DNA of 64,000 nt from an uncultured Actinomycetota bacterium. Lineage in GTDB: Bacteria; Actinomycetota; Actinomycetes; Mycobacteriales; Mycobacteriaceae. Under the pieces are notes generated by a model. It saw only the letters and a list, made by a program, of their open reading frames with translations, was not told where the DNA came from and ran no database searches. The DNA lies in contig CAWCSO010000012.1 of assembly GCA_963798245.1 (NCBI GenBank), positions 361,358 to 425,357 on the forward strand, in the 5' to 3' direction. This document shows, in pieces, positions 24,942-35,407 of the stretch. A program made the translations under genes and the position numbers. How positions within the stretch are numbered: position 1 is the stretch's first letter; each line of letters starts with the position of its first letter.

Positions 24942-26168
24942 ATGTCGACCACACCCACGTTCATCATCGCCGGCGGCGGTCTGGCCGGCGCCAAGGCCGC
25001 AGAAGCGCTGCGGGACAATGGTTTCAAGGGTCAGGTGGTGCTCATCGGGGCAGAGGATCATCTGCCCTACGAGCGCCCTCCCCTGTCCAAGGACTACCTG
25101 TCCGCGAAGAAGGGTCTCGACGACTTCACCGTCGAAGACGCCGACTGGTACCGCGACAACGACGTCGAACTGCGCCTCGGCACCGAGGTGACGGGCATCG
25201 ATCCGGCATCGCACACCGTCAAGCTGGCGGACGGCGAGTCCCTGCCCTACGACAAGCTGCTGTTGGCGACCGGCTCGAGATCCCGCAGGCCCTCGATTCC
25301 CGGCGCGGACGCCGCCGGGGTGCACTACCTTCGCACTGTCGAGGACGCCGACGAACTCCTGGGATCGCTCACCGAAGGGGCGACGCTCGCCGTGGTGGGC
25401 GCCGGCTGGATCGGTCTGGAGGTCACCGCCGCGGCCCGTGAGCGCGGCGTTCGGGTCACGGTGGTGGAGAGCGCCGAACTGCCACTGCTGTCGGCACTCG
25501 GTCGCGAGGCGGCCGAGGTGTTCGCCCAACTGCACCGCGATCACGGCGTCGACCTGCGTCTGCAGGCCTCGGTGGAGGCCATCACCACCGATGGCGGGCG
25601 CGCGACGGGGTTGACCCTCGCCGATGGGTCGTCTGTCACCGCCGACGCCGTCCTGGTGGCCGTCGGCGCCGCGCCCAACATCGAACTGGCCGAATCTGCG
25701 GGGTTGCAGACGGCTGACGGCGGCGTGATGGTCGATGCGTCGCTGCGGACCAGTGATGACGACGTCTACGCGGTCGGCGACATCGCGGCCGCCGAGCATC
25801 GGTTGCTGCGCACCAGGATCCGCACCGAGCACTGGGCCAACGCGCAGAAGCAGCCGGCGGTTGCGGCAGCCGGGATGATGGGCGACCCGCGCTCATACGA
25901 CGAGCTGCCCTACTTCTACACCGACCAGTACGACCTCGGGATGGAGTACGTGGGGCACGCCCCCGACTACGACCGGGTCGTCTTCCGGGGTGATGTCCCC
26001 GGCCGCGAGTTCACCGTGTTCTGGCTGGACGCCGGCCGCCGGGTGCTGGCGGGCATGAACGTCAACGTGTGGGAGGGGCTCGACGACATCAAGGACCTGG
26101 TTCGCGCCCGGACTCCGGTGAATCCCGACCGGCTCGCCGACCCCGAGGTGCCACTGACCGAGGTCTGA
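24942..26168 (+). CDS. NAD(P)/FAD-dependent ferredoxin reductase-like oxidoreductase (Rv1869c-like)
   Basis: GGGLAG, PYERPPLSK, GAGWIGLE, EHWANA, FYTDQYD. Confidence 0.9.
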   Translation: MSTTPTFIIAGGGLAGAKAAEALRDNGFKGQVVLIGAEDHLPYERPPLSKDYLSAKKGLDDFTVEDADWYRDNDVELRLGTEVTGIDPASHTVKLADGESLPYDKLLLATGSRSRRPSIPGADAAGVHYLRTVEDADELLGSLTEGATLAVVGAGWIGLEVTAAARERGVRVTVVESAELPLLSALGREAAEVFAQLHRDHGVDLRLQASVEAITTDGGRATGLTLADGSSVTADAVLVAVGAAPNIELAESAGLQTADGGVMVDASLRTSDDDVYAVGDIAAAEHRLLRTRIRTEHWANAQKQPAVAAAGMMGDPRSYDELPYFYTDQYDLGMEYVGHAPDYDRVVFRGDVPGREFTVFWLDAGRRVLAGMNVNVWEGLDDIKDLVRARTPVNPDRLADPEVPLTEV

Positions 26169-26278
26169 GCGGGTCCTGAATACGGCCCACCCGTGCCCGC
26201 GGGCGCCCACCGCGTAGGTAACAATGGGTCCATCTCGACGGGCAGCGATCATCTCGACGGGCAGGAAGGAAGGTTGGC

Positions 26279-26911
26279 GTGAGCGTGGCCGCCGACGAAC
26301 TCACGGGTACCGAACAGGCCGTTCTCCTCGTCCTGATGGCCGAGTCCCGGCCGGTCGCCAATCCCGAACTCGAACGGCTCGGGCCGAAGCTGGACAAGCC
26401 CGCACGTGACCGGCTGAACCGGCTCGGGCTGATCGAGACGACGCCTGGCAGACCGCTGGTGCACGAACTCACCGACGCCGGCTGGGCGTTGTGCCGCGAA
26501 GTCATCGGAGCCGACGTTCCGGCCCGCGCCTCGGGTCAGGGCAAGGCGCTCTACACCCTGCTCAAGGCACTGGGACGGTACTTCGGCCGTGCCGACCTCT
26601 CGCCGTCGGACGTTTTCCTGCCCGCCGGCGATCTGCCTCCATCGGGCGGGCCGGACATGCAGGTTCGCATCCGGCGTGCCTACGCCGATCTCACTCCCAA
26701 GCCTGGCGGTTGGGTCGGGCTGCTGGGTCTGCGCGGCGCGCTGTCCGACGTCGCTCGCGGCGACCTCGACGCCGCCCTGGTGACGCTGCACCGGGCCGCC
26801 GACGTCAGTCTCATCCCGGAGGAGAATCAGAAGACCCTCACCGACGCCGAGCACGCCGCCGCCGTGCGCGTCGGGAACCAGGACCGACACCTGATAGCGA
26901 TCCAGCCCTAG
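26279..26911 (+). CDS. hypothetical protein, probably two winged-helix-like domains
   Basis: RLNRLGLIETT..VHELTDAGW wing motif; RBS ggaaggaagg; stop overlaps next start (TAGTG). Confidence 0.7.
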   Translation: MSVAADELTGTEQAVLLVLMAESRPVANPELERLGPKLDKPARDRLNRLGLIETTPGRPLVHELTDAGWALCREVIGADVPARASGQGKALYTLLKALGRYFGRADLSPSDVFLPAGDLPPSGGPDMQVRIRRAYADLTPKPGGWVGLLGLRGALSDVARGDLDAALVTLHRAADVSLIPEENQKTLTDAEHAAAVRVGNQDRHLIAIQP

Positions 26912-29900
26912 TGGATTCTGCACAACGCGAGGCGCTGGCCGGCCTGAGACTAACCTGGGCGCCCACGGCCGACGACCTCTGGCACTCGCAGAGTTCGGTG
27001 CATGTTCGCGGCCTAAACGACTTCGCGCTCGACGACGTGCACGCTGCATTCACCGACGCCGCGCGCCATCCCGAGTCCAACCCATTGGGCGTGGTCATCC
27101 GGGGGCCCGCCGGTTCGGGCAAGACGCACCTGCTCGGACAGGTTCGCGAACGTGTGCAGGCCGAGGGCGGTTACTTCCTGCTGGTCGAACTGCTCGACGC
27201 CGCTAGTTTCTGGCAGTCCGCCCGTGGGGGCGTGTTGGAGAGCCTGGGTCGGCCAGGCGGAGAACGGGACACCCAGCTCAAGGATCTGTTGTGGGAACTC
27301 TCGACCATCGCTCACGTCAGCCGCGCCGACCGGCGGGCGATCGTCGGCGACGTCGACGTGACGCCCGACATCCTCGAGCGATTCATCGCCGCACTGCACC
27401 GCCAGCGCCGCCCCGTGATTCGCGAGACTCACCACACCCTTCGGGCGCTGGTGCTGCTCGGTGCCGGCGAGCTGACGCTGCAGGACGTGGGTCAGGCGTT
27501 TCTGAATGGCAACGACCTCGGTGATGCCGATCGGACCACCTGGCGGCTGCCGTCGCCGACGATGACCGCGCAGGAGTCGGTGCGCCACCTCTCGAGGATC
27601 GTCGCACTGGCGGGCCCCGCAGTGCTCGCGATCGATCAGATCGACACGCTGCTGGCGCAGTCGTCCGATAGCACGGCGACCGGCGACCGCGCCGACAACC
27701 GCGATCTCGAACAGGTCGCGCACGGACTCATGTCGATCCGACAGACGATGCGCCGCACTCCCGCGGTGGTCGCCTGCCTGCCGAGCGCCTGGGAGTCCAT
27801 CGAATCCCGGGCGACGGCATCCGTCGCAGACCGGTTTCGCGTGACGGCGCCACTGCGTCCGCTGCCGAGCGCTGAACTCGGCCGCGCGATTCTGGAACGC
27901 CGGTTCACGTCGAGCTATCGTGTCACGGGATTCACTCCGCCGTACCCGAGCTGGCCCATTCTGCCGAAAGCCTTCGCAGAGGCGCCGCAGTTCACTCCCC
28001 GGGAGCTTCTGAAGCGCGCGGACGCTCACATCCGCCGTTGCCTCGATCTGGATGCCGTCGCCGAACTCGACACGCTCACCGGTCAAGACGACGTGTTCGC
28101 GGGGACCGACCACTCGCCGCAAGCCCCGTCCAGCGAACTCGACGCCCGGTTCGACGACTACCGTAGGCGGGCAGTTCCGGTCGCGGCCCTGGATCCGGAA
28201 GGCGAGGACACCACCGCGCCGGCGCTGCTGTCGGCGGCGCTGGACGCATGGATCGCCGAGCGCGGAACCGACCAGGCGTTCCGACTCGACCCGCCCCCCG
28301 GCAGTCGCGTGGTGTTGCACGCACGGCTGCGGCAGAGTCTGGACCCCTTGACCGACGACGAGCGGCACTGGGCGTTTCGGGCGATCGCGGCCACCAACGC
28401 GGTCGCTGCCCAGAATCGGATCAAGAACGCCTGCAACGCAGCGGGATTCGGGCCCAAGAGGCAGCTCTTCCTGCTGCGCAACGCGCCGTGGCCTACCGGG
28501 CCGAAGACCGCCAAGCTCGTCGAGGAGTTCGAGGCGGCCGGCGGGCGCACGGTGGCCGTGTCCGACGACGACCTGCGCACCATGTCGGCGCTACGGGACT
28601 TGATGGACGACGACGATCCCGGGCTCGTGGACTGGCTGACCGTACGCAGGCCGGCCCATGGCCTCGCCGTGTTCCGAGACGCCCTGGGTGATCTGGTCGG
28701 AGAGTCGTCGCCGGTTCACGAATCCGCCCCTGCCGCGGAGTCCGTCGCCGCGGAAGCCCCTCCGCGACCGCACTATCCACCCGTAGCGGATACCCCGAAC
28801 GCGGTGCCGCTGGGGATCGAACTGCACTCCGATCGCACGCTGTCGGTGGACCTGTCCGCGCTGCGCAAGCACACCGTGATCTTCGCTGGGTCGGGTTCGG
28901 GCAAGACCGTGCTGATCCGGCGCCTGGTCGAGGAGTGCGCCCTTCGCGGTGTGTCCTCGATCGTGCTCGACCCGAACAACGACCTGTCCCGGCTGGGCAT
29001 CGCGTGGCCTCGGCGTCCGGACGGTTGGAACGATGGCGACGACCAGCGGGCTCAGGAGTACCTCGACAACACCGAAGTGGTGGTGTGGACGCCGCGGCGC
29101 GACGCGGGACGGCCGCTGTCCTTTCAGCCCCTTCCGGACTTCCCGGCCGTCGTCGATGACCGCGACGAGTTCTCCGACGCCGTGGAGTCGGCGGTGGCCG
29201 CGCTCGAACCGCGGGCGCTGATCTCTGGAAACACGCCCAAGGCCAACAGGTCCCGCGCGGTACTGCGCGAGGCGCTGTCCTATTACGGTGGACACCGGTC
29301 GACGACGCTGCAGGGGTTCATCGACCTGCTCGGCCATCTGCCGTCGGACGTTAGCGGACTGTCCGACGGCACCAAACTGGCGGCTGAACTTGCGCAGAAT
29401 CTGCGTGCGGCGACCATCAACGATCCCCTGTTCGGAGGCGGCGGCACGCCCGCCGATCCCGGGGTGCTGTTGACCCCGACGGCTGGGCGACGGGCCAGGG
29501 TCTCGGTGATCAGCATGGTCGGTCTGACCAGCGCAGAGCAGCGGGAGGGGTTCGTCAATCAGTTGCAGATGGCGTTGTTTGCCTGGATCAGGCAACATCC
29601 CGCCGGTGAACGTCCCCTCGGCGGACTCCTGGTGATGGATGAGGCGCAGAACTTCGCCCCGTCCGGTCGCGCGACGACGTGCCTGCAGAGCACCTTGGCC
29701 TTGTCGTCACAGGCACGCAAGTATGGTCTCGGCCTCGTCTACGCCACCCAGGCGCCTCGCGGACTGCACAACCACGTGCCCGGCAACGCGGCCACGCAGT
29801 TCTACGGATTGCTGAACGCTCCCGCGCAGATCGCGGTCGCCAAGGAGATGGCCCGCGTCAAGGGCGGCGAGGTGCCCGACATCAGCAAGCTGCAGGCCGG

Positions 29901-30042
29901 TAACTTCTATGCGGCGCTGGAAGGTGCAGCCTTCCAACGGATTCGGGCGCCGTGGTGCCTGTCCCATCACCCGCAGAGTCCACCGACGACCGAAGAGGTA
30001 CTCGAACTCGCCCGGCGGGAACCGCAGGAGAGACTGCCGTAG
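26911..30042 (+). CDS. double ATPase: N-terminal P-loop ATPase + C-terminal HerA/DUF87 translocase (1043 aa)
   Basis: GPAGSGKT/LAIDQID and AGSGSGKT/LDPNND/LVMDEAQ/ARKYG/ATQ motifs. Confidence 0.85.
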   Translation: MDSAQREALAGLRLTWAPTADDLWHSQSSVHVRGLNDFALDDVHAAFTDAARHPESNPLGVVIRGPAGSGKTHLLGQVRERVQAEGGYFLLVELLDAASFWQSARGGVLESLGRPGGERDTQLKDLLWELSTIAHVSRADRRAIVGDVDVTPDILERFIAALHRQRRPVIRETHHTLRALVLLGAGELTLQDVGQAFLNGNDLGDADRTTWRLPSPTMTAQESVRHLSRIVALAGPAVLAIDQIDTLLAQSSDSTATGDRADNRDLEQVAHGLMSIRQTMRRTPAVVACLPSAWESIESRATASVADRFRVTAPLRPLPSAELGRAILERRFTSSYRVTGFTPPYPSWPILPKAFAEAPQFTPRELLKRADAHIRRCLDLDAVAELDTLTGQDDVFAGTDHSPQAPSSELDARFDDYRRRAVPVAALDPEGEDTTAPALLSAALDAWIAERGTDQAFRLDPPPGSRVVLHARLRQSLDPLTDDERHWAFRAIAATNAVAAQNRIKNACNAAGFGPKRQLFLLRNAPWPTGPKTAKLVEEFEAAGGRTVAVSDDDLRTMSALRDLMDDDDPGLVDWLTVRRPAHGLAVFRDALGDLVGESSPVHESAPAAESVAAEAPPRPHYPPVADTPNAVPLGIELHSDRTLSVDLSALRKHTVIFAGSGSGKTVLIRRLVEECALRGVSSIVLDPNNDLSRLGIAWPRRPDGWNDGDDQRAQEYLDNTEVVVWTPRRDAGRPLSFQPLPDFPAVVDDRDEFSDAVESAVAALEPRALISGNTPKANRSRAVLREALSYYGGHRSTTLQGFIDLLGHLPSDVSGLSDGTKLAAELAQNLRAATINDPLFGGGGTPADPGVLLTPTAGRRARVSVISMVGLTSAEQREGFVNQLQMALFAWIRQHPAGERPLGGLLVMDEAQNFAPSGRATTCLQSTLALSSQARKYGLGLVYATQAPRGLHNHVPGNAATQFYGLLNAPAQIAVAKEMARVKGGEVPDISKLQAGNFYAALEGAAFQRIRAPWCLSHHPQSPPTTEEVLELARREPQERLP

Positions 30043-30055
30043 CAGGGGCGTCCGG

Positions 30056-31532
30056 TCAGCCCAGCGAGGCCGTGCCGTCGGCGGCGACCGAGACCTTGGC
30101 GCCCGCGATGTCCTCTCTCACACTGGCTTCGGCGTCCTTCGGGTCGGTCAGCACCGCGAGCGCACGCGACTCGTCTGGGGTGCGTACCCCCACGAACGTC
30201 TTCTCGGGGTTGCCCTCCCGGGTGAACGGCGTCGTCCACGTCTCGATTGTGCCCACCCCCTTCCATGCGCTCTCGGCGACCCTGGTGGGCTCGGCGTCGA
30301 CCTCGGGTTGCACATCCTGCCAACGGAATTCATGGTCCGGCGGTGTGGCACCGTACACCCCGAAGCTGTGCTTGGTGAGGTACCCGCCGTTTGCGGTGAT
30401 GAGACCGACCTGACCGGGTTGCGCGGCGAGCCGTTCGGCCATCGTGGCGATCGAATGCGACACGTAGTTGTTCCACGGTCCACCGGCGAACGTCAGTCCA
30501 CCCGTGACCGTGAGCGGCCGATCCGCATCGTCCAGCGCCAGGCCGAGTTCGCGGGCCGCCACCTGAACCGCCGACGGGAAGCAGGAGTACACGTCAACCA
30601 GGCCGACGTCGTCGATGCCGTGCCCCGCGAGCTTCCAGGGCGCGGCGGCCGGCGATCCTGATCGCCGGCGACCGGTGGAACTCCGCCCGCTCGCCGATCA
30701 GATACGTGTCGTGCGCATCGGTTCCCGAGTATGGGAACACCCACCGGTCTCGCGGGATCTGCAAGGAGGTGGCCTTCTCCGCCGACGTCAGCACCAGTGC
30801 CGCTCCCTGATCGACCATGTTGTTGGAGTTCATCAGCTTGGTGTACGGCCAGCTGATCATCCGGTTGTCCGGGCTGGGCTGCCAGATCTCCTCGGCGGTC
30901 ACCGGGTCCCGGCTCCAGGCATGGGGATTGCGCTGCGCCACGGCGCTGAACCGGGCCCATAGCTCGCCGATTCGGAGTCGGTGATCCTGCGGCGTCTCCC
31001 CCGCATCGATGCGCACCGCCTGCTCGAACATGGGGTACACGTAGGCGGGTCGGTCGAGCTTGATGTGGATCTCGACGTCACCGGCCATCTGGAACTCGTC
31101 GTCGGCGCCGGGCGGGACGGGCACTGAGTCGTCCTGTTTGGTCCAGTCGAGCTTGCCGCCCTCGCGACGGACCCGCGTTCGGGTGCGCCAGGTTTCGGCA
31201 CCGGCGATCAGGACGGTGTCCAGACGTCCGCTCTGGATGTCCAGGCACGCCTGGTTCACCAGTGACTGCGGGACGTTGCCGCCGATGCTGGTGTAGCGGC
31301 TGTCGGCGTCGCCGGCGCGAATACGTTGCGCCAGGAGAAGTCCGGGGTTGCGGTAGCGCCAGGACAGCAGGTTGACGATGCGCACCGAGTCGACCGCCTC
31401 CAGGACCCGGGGGTCGGCCGCGGCGCGTGCGGCGGCTTCCATGAGGTCGACGGGCTCCACCGAGGGATCGGATTCGCGCTGGTTGACCTGGCCGTATCCG
31501 ACCAGTACGGGCGTTCGTGGATCGATGGTCAC
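30056..31532 (-). CDS. thiolase-like acetyl-CoA acetyltransferase (Rv1867-like), frameshifted near 30600-30630
   Basis: DPRTPVLVGYGQ, PYTKLMNS, YSCFPSAV, TGGLTFAGGPWNNY. Confidence 0.85.
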
Positions 31533-31546
31533 GTGTACGACTTCTC

Positions 31547-33005
31547 TCAGGCGGGGCTCTGGTCGGCCGGGCCCACCCGGTAGATCGACTTCAGGTTCTG
31601 GTACGCCGCCAGGCCTTCGGGGCCGAGCTCGCGACCCATGCCGCTGGCCTTGACCCCGCCGAACGGCGCCTGCCATGTCGAGTTGGTAGTCGTTGACGCC
31701 GATCGTTCCGGTCCGCACCTTCCTGGCGACGTCGGTCGCCCGCGCGGTATCGGTGGACCAGACGGTGCCGCCGAGCCCGAACTCCGAGTCGTTGGCGATG
31801 TCGATCGCGTCGTGGTCCGAGTCGTAGGGAATGACGGCAAGCACCGGGCCGAAGATCTCCTCCTGCGCGATGCGCGCCCTGTTGTCGACGTCGGCGAACA
31901 CGGTCGGTGAGACGAACCAACCCCTTGGCTGGTCGGCCGGAACAGAGCCTCCCGCAACGAGTTTGGCCCCTTCGGAGGTGCCGACCTCGATGTAGCTCAG
32001 CACCCGCTCGCGCTGGCGGGCGCTGACCAGGGGCCCGACGTGGGTGGCTCGGTCCAGCGGGTCACCGACGGTGAGCCCGTCGGCGAGCGCGGCGAGCGCG
32101 GCCACGACCTCGGCGTAGCGCGACCGCGGTGCGAGGACGCGCGAACTCAGGTGACAGGTCTGGCCATTGTTCACGAACGATGCGGAACGCAGCCCCTTCA
32201 TGGTGGCGTCGAGGTCGGCGTCGTCGAGGATGATGGCCGCGGACTTCCCGCCGAGTTCCAGTGTCACGGGCCGCATCAGGCGCCCGCACGTCTCGGCGAT
32301 GATTCGGCCCGCCGCGGTGGAGCCGGTGAACGCCACCTTGTCCACGCCGGGATGCGCCACCAGATGGGCGCCCGCCACCGGTCCGCCCGCGACGATGTTG
32401 AGCACCCCGGCCGGGAGTCCCGCCGCGTCGGCGGCCTCGGCGAAGATCAGGGCGTCCAGGGCGGTTTCGGGTGCCGCCTTGAGCACCATGGTGCAGCCCG
32501 CCGCGAGCGCGGGTGCGATCTTCATCGCTGCCAGCGCCTGCGGATAGTTCCACGGGGTGATCGCCCCGACGACACCGACGGGCTCCCGACGCACGATCGT
32601 ATGACCGATCATCGCGGGCCGGATCTCCTCGGTCGCGCTCGCAACGATCAGATCGGCGTAGTACCGAAGCAGTGCCGCCGGGAACGCACCGTTGGCGCCG
32701 CGGGACAGCCAGATGGGCATGCCGTTCTCGCGGGTGCACAACTCGTTGGTGTCCGCGGCGCGCGCGGTCAGCGCGTCGGCAATCCGGATCAGCACCTCGG
32801 CGCGATCGGCCGCCGGCGTCGAGCTCCATCCGTTGAGCGCGCCCCGCGCGGCGGCGACGGCATCGTCGATCTCGGATTCCGTTGCCGACGAGCCGTGGCC
32901 GAGGAGTTCGCCCGTGGCGGCCTCGAGCACCGGCTCGGTCTGGCTCGGGGCGCGGAATCGGCCACCCACGAACAACCTGGCCTCGACCAGCGACGTCATT
33001 GTCAT
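31547..33005 (-). CDS. aldehyde dehydrogenase, frameshifted near 31670
   Basis: PWNYP, FTGST, LELGGKS, GQTC, EEIFGPV; PFGGVKASG continues in another frame. Confidence 0.88.
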
Positions 33006-35407
33006 GATGGACTCCTCATCTCGTGGTTCGTCTTCTCTTGGCTGGCTTCCGGCCAACTGAACAGCACGCCGTCGGCGATGTGACGGTCGGTTTCATCGTC
33101 GCTCATGGACAGCACCTCGCGGCAGATCTGGCGGGTCTGTTCCCCCGGCATCGGCGCGGGGCGCAACGGGGCGTCGGGGATGTGCCGGTAGAGCGCGGGA
33201 TGGGTCTCGGTGGGCATCGGCGCGTCGAACAACGGGTGAACCATGTCGGTGTAGAGGGCACGACTGCGGAGCTGCGCGTCGGCCAGGACGTCGACGGCGC
33301 GGTTCATCGGCCCCGCGGGCACCCCGGCCGCCTGCAGCTCGACGGTGACCTCGGCCTTGCCGCGCCCGGCCGTCCAATCTTCCGCGAGTGCGACGAGTTC
33401 GGTGTCGCTGCTCGGCGGACCTGCCATGCCGAGGATGTCTGTAAGTGCGCGGCGGTGCGCATCCGAGGTGAGCGACACGACGCACCACTCGTCGTCACCG
33501 CGGCAGGGCAGCACCGCGTGCACGGCGTCGTCGGGTTCGGTCGGGAGCCCCTGCGCGCGGGCGGCCTGGGCGACGTAGGTGGCGGCGAGTTGGTTCACGG
33601 CGACCTCGGCCTGGGAGACGTGGACCCGCGACGCCGCACCGCTCGACCGTCGATGGATCAGGGCCGAAAGGGCGGCGATGGCGGTGATCCTGGCGGCAAC
33701 GTGGTCGGGAAAGACGGTGGTGGCATCGTAGAAGGCGCGATCGGCGTCGGCGTCACGACGATCGGTCCACAGGCTGCTGACGCCGGTAGTCGCGCGTACC
33801 AGTGGCCCGTAGCCCATCCTGGAACTCCACGGCCCGTCGGCACCGAACGCGCTGCTCTCGGCGATCACGATCCCCGGATTGACGGCACGCAGCGCGTCGT
33901 GGGAGAAGCCAAGGGATTCAAGCGTTCCGGGCTTGAAGTTGGCGAATACGGCATCGGATGCGGCGACGAGGCGCCGGAAGACGGCGCCACCATCCGCGTG
34001 GCGCAGATCGAGGCCGATACTGCGCTCGTTGCGGTGGGTCAGCGCCCACGACCGGCTCATCTGTTGGCCGGGCGGCGTCTGACGGAGTCCGTCGGGGTAG
34101 GCGGCACTCTCCACCTTGATGACGTCGGCGCCCATGTCGGCGAACAGGCGGCCGAGTTCGCCGCCTGCGACGATCACGCCGAGATCGAGTATCCGGAGGC
34201 CATCGAAGGGCATGGGCGTGATCGTCGTGGCACGGTCGGCGGGCGGTGGGGCCGCGGGGTCGGCGATCCAGACCGGCGCGTGCGCGGCAACCCCGGGGGC
34301 CGGCCACCGGAGTCCGGCGCGGCGGCCGTCGATGACGAACGGGCCGGTGGGCACGTCCACGCGCACATCGGAGGTCAGTTCGGCGTTGGTCAGGGCCCCC
34401 ACGTCGCGAAGGTGCGCCGATGCCAGCGCGTCGGCCGGGCTGAGCACCGCCGCGATGGGCACGCCGCGGGCCTGGCCCTCGGTGACGAGTTCCTCCATCG
34501 TGGCGTCGCGGAACAGGGCGGCGATGAGGGTGTTGATGTCCTCCGATGCCGCGTACCGCGCCGCGATGCTCTCGAACGCGGGGTCCGAGAATCGTTCGGG
34601 CTCGCCGAGCCAGGCCCGCATGCCCCGCCACTGTCGCGCCGACAGCAGGCAGATGCGGACATGGCCGTCACGGCAGGGGAACGTCGGGTAGATCTGCTGG
34701 TTTCTTGGCCTTCCGCGCCACAGTCGATGTGAGGGCTTCTGGCCGACGGCTGCCTGGCCCTCGGAGCCGAACGCCGGATCCAGCGACTGTACGACGGCCT
34801 CGAATCGCGAGAAGTCGATGAACTCCCCCCGACCGGTGCGCATCCGCTGCCACAGCGCGACGAGCACCGCCCACGCGGCCTGGACCGCGGCGGTCGCCGA
34901 GGCAATCCCGTCGGGGGGCGGCACGGGACGGCCGACGGTGGGCCCGGAACGCGACAGCGCGCTCGACATCGCGTAGAACACGGCGTCGGTGGCCTGCCGT
35001 CCGGCATAAGGGCCGGTCGCGCCGAAGTCGGTGACCAATAGGGCGACGACCGTCTCGAATCGGTTCGCGAGGGCCTCGCACGAGGTCCCGAACGCAGCAG
35101 CACCGCCGGGGAAGCCGCCATCGACGATGACGTCGGCCGACCGTGCGAGTTCCATGAAGTGGTCGCGGTCGCGCACGTCTTCGCCGTCGAGCACCGTGCA
35201 GCGCTTGTTGGCGTTGTCGAGAGCGAACGGGATGCTGAGGCCGGCCACGGTGGGCCGGCGGTCACGGGCGGGCGATCCGGTCGGCGGCTCCACCTTCAGA
35301 ACGTCCGCGCCGAGGTCGGCAAGGAGCCGGCCAACACCGTCTGACTGTGCGCCACCGAGGTCGAGCACACGCACCGGCGCCAAAAGCTGACACGTGTCAA
35401 GCGGCAT
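33002..35407 (-). CDS. tandem CaiB/BaiF family III CoA-transferase (Rv1866-like)
   Basis: two repeats of RVLDLG..LADLGADVLKVE. Confidence 0.9.
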   Translation of the reverse strand: MPLDTCQLLAPVRVLDLGGAQSDGVGRLLADLGADVLKVEPPTGSPARDRRPTVAGLSIPFALDNANKRCTVLDGEDVRDRDHFMELARSADVIVDGGFPGGAAAFGTSCEALANRFETVVALLVTDFGATGPYAGRQATDAVFYAMSSALSRSGPTVGRPVPPPDGIASATAAVQAAWAVLVALWQRMRTGRGEFIDFSRFEAVVQSLDPAFGSEGQAAVGQKPSHRLWRGRPRNQQIYPTFPCRDGHVRICLLSARQWRGMRAWLGEPERFSDPAFESIAARYAASEDINTLIAALFRDATMEELVTEGQARGVPIAAVLSPADALASAHLRDVGALTNAELTSDVRVDVPTGPFVIDGRRAGLRWPAPGVAAHAPVWIADPAAPPPADRATTITPMPFDGLRILDLGVIVAGGELGRLFADMGADVIKVESAAYPDGLRQTPPGQQMSRSWALTHRNERSIGLDLRHADGGAVFRRLVAASDAVFANFKPGTLESLGFSHDALRAVNPGIVIAESSAFGADGPWSSRMGYGPLVRATTGVSSLWTDRRDADADRAFYDATTVFPDHVAARITAIAALSALIHRRSSGAASRVHVSQAEVAVNQLAATYVAQAARAQGLPTEPDDAVHAVLPCRGDDEWCVVSLTSDAHRRALTDILGMAGPPSSDTELVALAEDWTAGRGKAEVTVELQAAGVPAGPMNRAVDVLADAQLRSRALYTDMVHPLFDAPMPTETHPALYRHIPDAPLRPAPMPGEQTRQICREVLSMSDDETDRHIADGVLFSWPEASQEKTNHEMRSPS

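Follow-up and report, generated by a model that had tools for sequence, protein, structure and literature searches.

Orc/CDC6-coupled HerA/FtsK capture systems were predicted computationally by Rakesh, Aravind and Krishnan (Nucleic Acids Res 2024; PMC10853773). In section 22 of that study they are described as combining an Orc/CDC6 ATPase, in which the AAA+ core and the C-terminal winged helix are invariably separated by an inserted inactive restriction-endonuclease-like domain (iREase), with an active restriction endonuclease (REase) from one of two families and a HerA/FtsK domain, one version of which carries an inserted four-helix bundle. A subset additionally encodes a fast-evolving protein of 2-4 winged helices. 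The authors proposed that DNA of an invader is caught by the pump and passed to the nuclease, a proposal that was repeated without experiments by an overlapping group in 2026 (PMC12839542).

We examined a gene pair of an uncultured Actinomycetota bacterium of the family Mycobacteriaceae, located in a 64,000-nucleotide stretch of contig CAWCSO010000012.1 (assembly GCA_963798245.1, positions 361,358 to 425,357), hereafter called the window. The pair consists of a small gene (26279-26911, 210 aa) and a large gene (26911-30042, 1043 aa), both on the forward strand. We favor, at a probability of roughly 0.55, the reading that this locus is a nuclease-less two-gene derivative of a three-gene Orc/CDC6-coupled HerA/FtsK capture cassette and likely still interferes with foreign replicons, the full cassette comprising a DUF559 endonuclease, a double winged-helix protein, and a fusion of an ORC-like AAA+ module, an inactive REase-like domain, a winged helix and a HerA/FtsK ATPase. 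The architecture fits the class described in 2024 and is therefore not undescribed; as judged from its sequence, the locus looks like a functional member of that predicted class.

Architecture of the pair and comparison with known systems

An initial annotation of the window, made by a model from the letters alone, had described the two overlapping open reading frames (ORFs) and a large protein with two NTPase modules. Both ORFs were confirmed as a translationally coupled pair, with the TAG stop of the small gene and the GTG start of the large gene sharing a G (TAGTG), and all of the quoted motifs were found in place, marking two intact and different NTPase modules. Two DNA-dependent ATPases, each from a different class of machine, are joined in a single polypeptide. 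A longer version of the large ORF, opening in frame at 26491, would give a 420-nt overlap with the small gene; homologues align from residue 2-5 of the large protein and do not use it.

The large protein was modeled with AlphaFold2 (AF2) at a predicted local distance difference test (pLDDT) score of 90, using a 60-sequence alignment. Its first module (aa 1-392, 26911-28086) belongs to the ORC/Cdc6 clade of AAA+ ATPases, with the Walker A motif GPAGSGKT at aa 65-72 (27103-27126) and the Walker B motif LAIDQID at aa 239-245 (27625-27645). Approximately 170 residues separate the two motifs, and this insert consists mainly of the helices at 100-234, as the initial annotation had observed. Pfam assigned the N-terminus to AAA_22/AAA_16, and the structural neighbors of the module are ORC/TnsC-type AAA+ proteins. 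The suggestion that it resembles STAND ATPases did not hold up: matches to NACHT, nSTAND and Avs2 were below cut-offs and covered the P-loop (aa 40-91) only, and STAND/Avs NTPases, which combine a NACHT/NB-ARC core with an N-terminal effector and a sensor of C-terminal repeats, were rejected as relatives.

The second ATPase (aa 623-1043, 28777-30042) follows a disordered Ala/Pro-rich linker (aa 597-622, 28699-28776; pLDDT <50) and belongs to the HerA/FtsK clade. Pfam DUF87, the HerA central domain, matches residues 643-793. Walker A (AGSGSGKT) lies at aa 659-666 (28885-28908), Walker B (VMDEAQ) at aa 908-913 (29632-29649), the arginine finger R936 in RKYG at aa 936-939 (29716-29727), and the sensor-1 residue Q947 in ATQ at aa 945-947 (29743-29751). 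A four-helix insert occupies aa 751-837. As the alignment with HerA begins at HerA residue 106, corresponding to model residue 620, the domain lacks the HAS barrel. Both sets of Walker A and B motifs, R936 and Q947 were invariant or nearly so among 60 homologues, down to 31% identity, and R308 and R364 of the ORC-like module were invariant; therefore, both motors look catalytically competent.

Between the two ATPases lies a middle domain (aa 403-596, 28117-28698). By DSSP of the whole-protein AF2 model, its elements follow the order alpha (432-451)-beta-beta-beta-alpha-beta (517-522), succeeded by a helical or winged part (531-592) made up of helices and a strand. Conserved residues are D433, E450, H470, R491, R503, R523, GG544-545 and W575; the homologue alignment contains no conserved D...(D/E)xK. 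The domain had no match in a PDB-sequence profile search, in Pfam searches with 59 members, or in an hhalign comparison with the DUF559-partner alignment, and whole-model fold searches were dominated by the two ATPase domains. If the domain can be assigned at all, it is probably an inactive restriction-endonuclease-like fold followed by the C-terminal winged helix of the ORC-like family. The idea that it might be a diverged nuclease needs correction: the predicted topology is REase-like, and in the absence of the acidic/lysine triad such a fold would be inactive.

The small protein was modeled at a pLDDT of 91.7 (28-sequence alignment) as two winged-helix domains, at aa 10-64 and aa 125-208; a helix and a variable, Pro-rich linker (aa 86-124) lie between them. 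No match was obtained in Pfam, PADLOC or NCBIfam, fold searches returned generic MarR/TubR/ScpB-type winged helices only, and no specific likeness to DndG, SspB or FokI was seen in them. A complex predicted from the small protein and residues 1-600 of its large partner scored 0.00, which is uninformative either way.

We next compared the locus with described systems. An ORC/Cdc6-clade AAA+ module with an intact active site, a HerA/FtsK ATPase with sensor-1 Q, arginine finger and four-helix insert, and a separate operon-encoded protein of 2-4 winged helices (two in the AF2 model) are all features of the capture class that were found here. The modeled order of the middle domain (432-522, then 531-592) would fit the iREase placed between AAA+ core and winged helix. 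The active REase gene of that class is absent at the window locus and is represented in relatives by DUF559, or in three further loci by DUF4365. Another difference concerns mobility, as the neighborhoods of capture systems were called mobile (PMC10853773) whereas the Mycobacteriales cassette is mostly vertically inherited and is often fixed between ribosomal-protein operons. The family itself was not confirmed within the dataset of that study, the supplementary text of which gave no match.

PADLOC returned a single meaningful match, to MADS mad8 (6.3e-17), covering aa 645-953 of the HerA-type part. MAD7/MAD8 has been described as an ATPase-nuclease module (PMC13662399), and MADS comprises eight genes, mad1-mad8, with a methyltransferase; the window has no other mad match and no methyltransferase nearby. 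As to whether the pair matches a named defence system, a question raised by the initial annotation, PADLOC names the HerA part only, and the overall design fits the class predicted in 2024. In DndFGH, the C-terminal HerA/FtsK domain of DndH (PDB 7es4) resembles the window pump, and this is the sole shared part; the kinase-like DndF, the triple winged helix of DndG and the inactive methylase/REase domains of DndH are all missing here, the PADLOC match to DndH was marginal (0.035), and no phosphorothioate genes lie nearby. HerA-effector pairs (SIR2-HerA/Nezha, DUF4297-HerA and TdpAB) and HerA-NurA use a stand-alone HerA with a HAS barrel, whereas the window pump has no barrel and is fused to an ORC-like AAA+ module; its partner in relatives is DUF559 and not SIR2, DUF4297, NurA or TdpB, and the obligatory winged-helix subunit sets the family apart as well. 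Unlike loci with the ORC/Cdc6-like defence ATPases BrxC (BREX) and those of the SspC type, the window has no PglX/PglZ or Ssp modification genes, and its module is fused to a pump.

Presence, exchange and loss of the nuclease partner

We surveyed 54 Mycobacteriales loci, drawn from 11 genera. In all 54 the large gene is immediately preceded by the small gene, which also adjoins it in Nitrosococcus, in a Desulfobulbaceae metagenome-assembled genome (MAG) and in a metagenome contig. Because homologues of both genes are adjacent in 54 of 54 related loci, the pairing is not due to chance.

HerA ATPases had been noted to be usually paired with an effector, and none was recognizable beside this pair. 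The latter point was confirmed for the operon in the window, where the upstream gene encodes a ferredoxin-reductase-type flavoprotein; the effector was found in relatives. In 39 of the 54 loci the small gene is directly preceded by a DUF559 gene, usually with a 4-nt overlap; this gene encodes a protein of 340-390 aa with the DUF559 (Vsr/REase-type) domain at its end. These operon-linked proteins are orthologous over their full length (35-45% identity over ~340 aa) and share a conserved D...ExDG..H. The same three-gene order occurs in the distant Desulfobulbaceae MAG (L035) and the unassigned metagenome contig (L037); Nitrosococcus has the pair only, with no third gene.

In genus g24 (three loci), a conserved DUF4365 gene (~180 aa) and a ~330-aa gene without a Pfam match replace DUF559. 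The new genes of these swapped-effector cassettes (L025 5831-7369, L026 and L061) stand directly upstream of the small gene. Genus g33 includes three loci in which the nuclease gene is cut down to a stub of its initial 35-40 codons (L024 12783-12887, L076 14325-14438, L077 6114-6236). As sister genomes retain the whole gene, the stubs are deletion scars that reflect secondary loss of the nuclease.

The window's genus has no nuclease gene at the locus in any of its five loci, the window included. A profile of the operon nuclease likewise detected no full-length operon-type DUF559 protein in the window genome (80% complete) or in four congeners. Several generic genes with a DUF559 core do occur elsewhere in these genomes, and this, together with the incompleteness of the assembly, would speak for a complete restriction machine that recruits an unlinked nuclease in trans. 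We regard that arrangement as quite unlikely: the generic genes match the ~100-aa core only and are without the ~230-aa N-terminal region common to the operon-linked partners. Moreover, complete cassettes translationally couple their nuclease, which suggests stoichiometric assembly.

The missing nuclease gene might also mean that the pair is a functionless remnant decaying after effector loss, and degraded copies do exist in relatives. At L031 (7708-9836, genome G169) the large gene is truncated after ~658 aa, leaving the ORC-like half, and only the last ~96 codons of the small gene are left; in genome G010 a copy is interrupted by stops. At the window locus, both ORFs are intact although the assembly has frameshifts elsewhere, and all catalytic residues are retained. 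The ratio of nonsynonymous to synonymous substitution rates (dN/dS) was 0.10-0.37 for both genes across four congeners, and both genes are under purifying selection. Decay is accordingly a very unlikely account.

The favored reading, a capture cassette that has lost its nuclease, would operate as follows. The double winged-helix protein would recognize DNA and recruit or license the ORC-like switch module, which when bound to ATP would oligomerize on DNA in the manner of ORC/Cdc6, TnsC or MuB. Oligomerization would thereby assemble a ring of six HerA/FtsK domains to pump double-stranded DNA, and in complete cassettes the DUF559 enzyme would cut the DNA fed to it. Without a nuclease, the window pair would be limited to DNA binding and translocation and would most likely hinder foreign replicons by displacement or stalling rather than by cleavage. 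The activity predicted as most likely is that the pair binds DNA and translocates it with ATP, guided by the double winged-helix protein.

Distribution and inheritance of the family

Searches with the large protein gave 2345 matches in a clustered database and, at E below 1e-30, 610 clusters (50% identity), the majority of them full length. Members include M. smegmatis A0QYB1, Nitrosococcus oceani, Desulfobulbaceae and Candidatus Magnetomorum, in addition to Glycomyces, Salininema, Actinophytocola and Nonomuraea. The large gene is thus also present in Gammaproteobacteria and Desulfobacterota. A match was found in 72 of the 201 genomes of the window's GTDB family, in 4/10 other genomes of its genus, and in 12/12 and 9/11 genomes of two other genera. 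Among 401 genomes sampled across the phylum there were five matches, all from the same order.

The chromosomal site of the cassette is often the same. In genera g6, g11, g15, g16 and g33 it lies on the opposite strand between rpsQ/rplP, at the end of the S10 operon, and rplX/rplE of the spc operon; where only one flank was retrieved, rpsQ/rplP adjoin the cassette, and in g9 and g21 the ribosomal genes observed beside it were rplX/rplE only. Loci with this siting are L019 (6958-14462), L020, L021, L028, L029, L051-L058, L063, L065-L071 and L073-L080. At L019 the cassette appears to occupy the entire S10-spc gap (rplP, rpsQ to rplN/rplX/rplE).

In a maximum-likelihood tree of the large protein, six genera formed single well-supported clades; g6 was divided among three clades and g21 between two. 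One g6 genome has, beside its main copy, another and divergent large gene (genome G060, C47 87743-90529; 48% identity, split into two matches). The window copy clustered with those of two congeners in which the Lon/reductase/thiolase context is the same. In a further two congeners the pair lies elsewhere, beside a PIF1-like helicase (L015 694-7128 and L048 11807-14149; 78% identity between the two). At L015 a 1118-aa SbcC/SMC-like ATPase and a DUF2293 protein are also adjacent, and this neighborhood may be a DNA-processing or defence gene cluster.

Several of our results weigh against a defence function at the window locus. Without the nuclease, the pair shows no evident effector activity, and secondary-structure order is the sole basis on which the middle domain would be assigned to iREase. 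No match to the pair was found in 50,697 phage records, and the three full-length matches among 72,556 plasmid records were all on large replicons (0.22, 1.6 and 11.9 Mb). The pair sits among metabolic genes and not in a defence island. To these are added the monophyly of genera in the tree, the 12/12 presence in one genus and the S10-spc siting in at least five genera. Mostly vertical descent follows from the genus clades, the fixed chromosomal sites and the near-absence from phages and plasmids, and the survey as a whole indicates that within Mycobacteriales the pair is long-resident and mostly vertically inherited, with occasional transfer and repeated nuclease loss. Finally, literature searches found no experiment on any family member and nothing relevant on DUF559 with HerA or on A0QYB1; the defence role is therefore a comparative-genomic prediction.

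Much of this evidence would suit a pair, or perhaps a whole Mycobacteriales cassette, co-opted for host tasks such as chromosome repair, segregation or the resolution of DNA structures and no longer directed at invaders. HerA and FtsK relatives act in repair and segregation, and both are among the structural matches. The gene tree follows genera, the large gene approaches or reaches full occupancy in two of them, its siting between rpsQ and rplN/rplX is fixed in at least five, phages and ordinary plasmids do not carry it, and the pair has been kept under purifying selection as the nuclease was repeatedly lost. Against this, only 4/10 other genomes of the window's genus have the gene, in three different chromosomal contexts; it occurs in 5/401 genomes of the phylum and yet in Gammaproteobacteria and Desulfobacterota, a patchiness unlike that of a housekeeping gene; and one genus falls in three separate clades. 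We consider the host role rather unlikely. Similarly tentative is the notion that a defence-derived cassette has become a resident chromosomal motor in Mycobacteriales and is shedding its nuclease, with the pair serving non-destructive surveillance, clearing or segregation.

The pump and the winged helices could alternatively be read as the transfer or partition apparatus of a mobile element, with a TraB/TrwB/VirB4-like pump and a TubR-like centromere binder. No integrase, relaxase or other transfer genes were found among the neighboring genes of the locus, chromosomal positions are fixed, the pair is practically absent from plasmid records, and its relatives are coupled to a nuclease gene, all of which render this explanation highly improbable.

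Setting of the window locus and implications for the family

Upstream of the pair are genes for a Lon protease and the ferredoxin-reductase-type flavoprotein, the latter ending 110 bp before the small gene; downstream are convergent genes for a thiolase-like protein, an aldehyde dehydrogenase and a CoA-transferase. GC content is flat over the locus at ~0.69. A ribosome-binding site, GGAAGGAAGG, precedes the small gene, and directly 5' of it are two perfect 15-nt direct repeats, CATCTCGACGGGCAG (26231-26264, forward strand), with a start-to-start distance of 19 nt. This 19-bp tandem duplication is recent, as a related sequence is present just once in each of the two syntenic relatives, L013 and L014. 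Promoter and terminator scans of 25900-30700 detected nothing exceeding chance.

The initial annotation had proposed an accessory insertion at the junction where M. tuberculosis has Rv1868. The slot, which spans the thiolase-like gene to the reductase or Lon region, is indeed variable, and in congeners without the pair it holds either an unrelated gene of 699-778 aa or an ORF of 202 aa. The occupant in one congener (L082 2572-4671) encodes 699 aa, begins with an NAD-binding (epimerase/NmrA-like) domain and has no relationship to the pair; it is probably the Rv1868 counterpart that was meant.

The adjacent thiolase-like (TLP1) gene (30056-33056, reverse strand) is apparently frameshifted. A separate ORF (30056-30592) encodes its C-terminal domain and begins immediately past the point where translation stops in an 820-aa ORF (30594-33056, reverse strand) that holds the aldehyde dehydrogenase and the N-terminal part of the thiolase-like protein in one frame. 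The thiolase-like protein of relatives is a single ORF of ~490-520 aa (L082 907-2472). The split gene represents either an assembly error or a pseudogene.

The window alone is of modest interest, and the added value comes from the 54-locus survey, with its record of nuclease presence and loss, its ribosomal-operon siting and its tree. The family is large (the 610 clusters) and includes the laboratory model M. smegmatis. It provides a natural series of complete three-gene, swapped-nuclease, deletion-scar and nuclease-less forms in which the motor can be compared with and without its nuclease. The ribosomal-operon siting and the repeated shedding of the nuclease lend some weight to the idea of exaptation and, if the reading as a resident motor is true, this family would be a case of immune-to-housekeeping exaptation.

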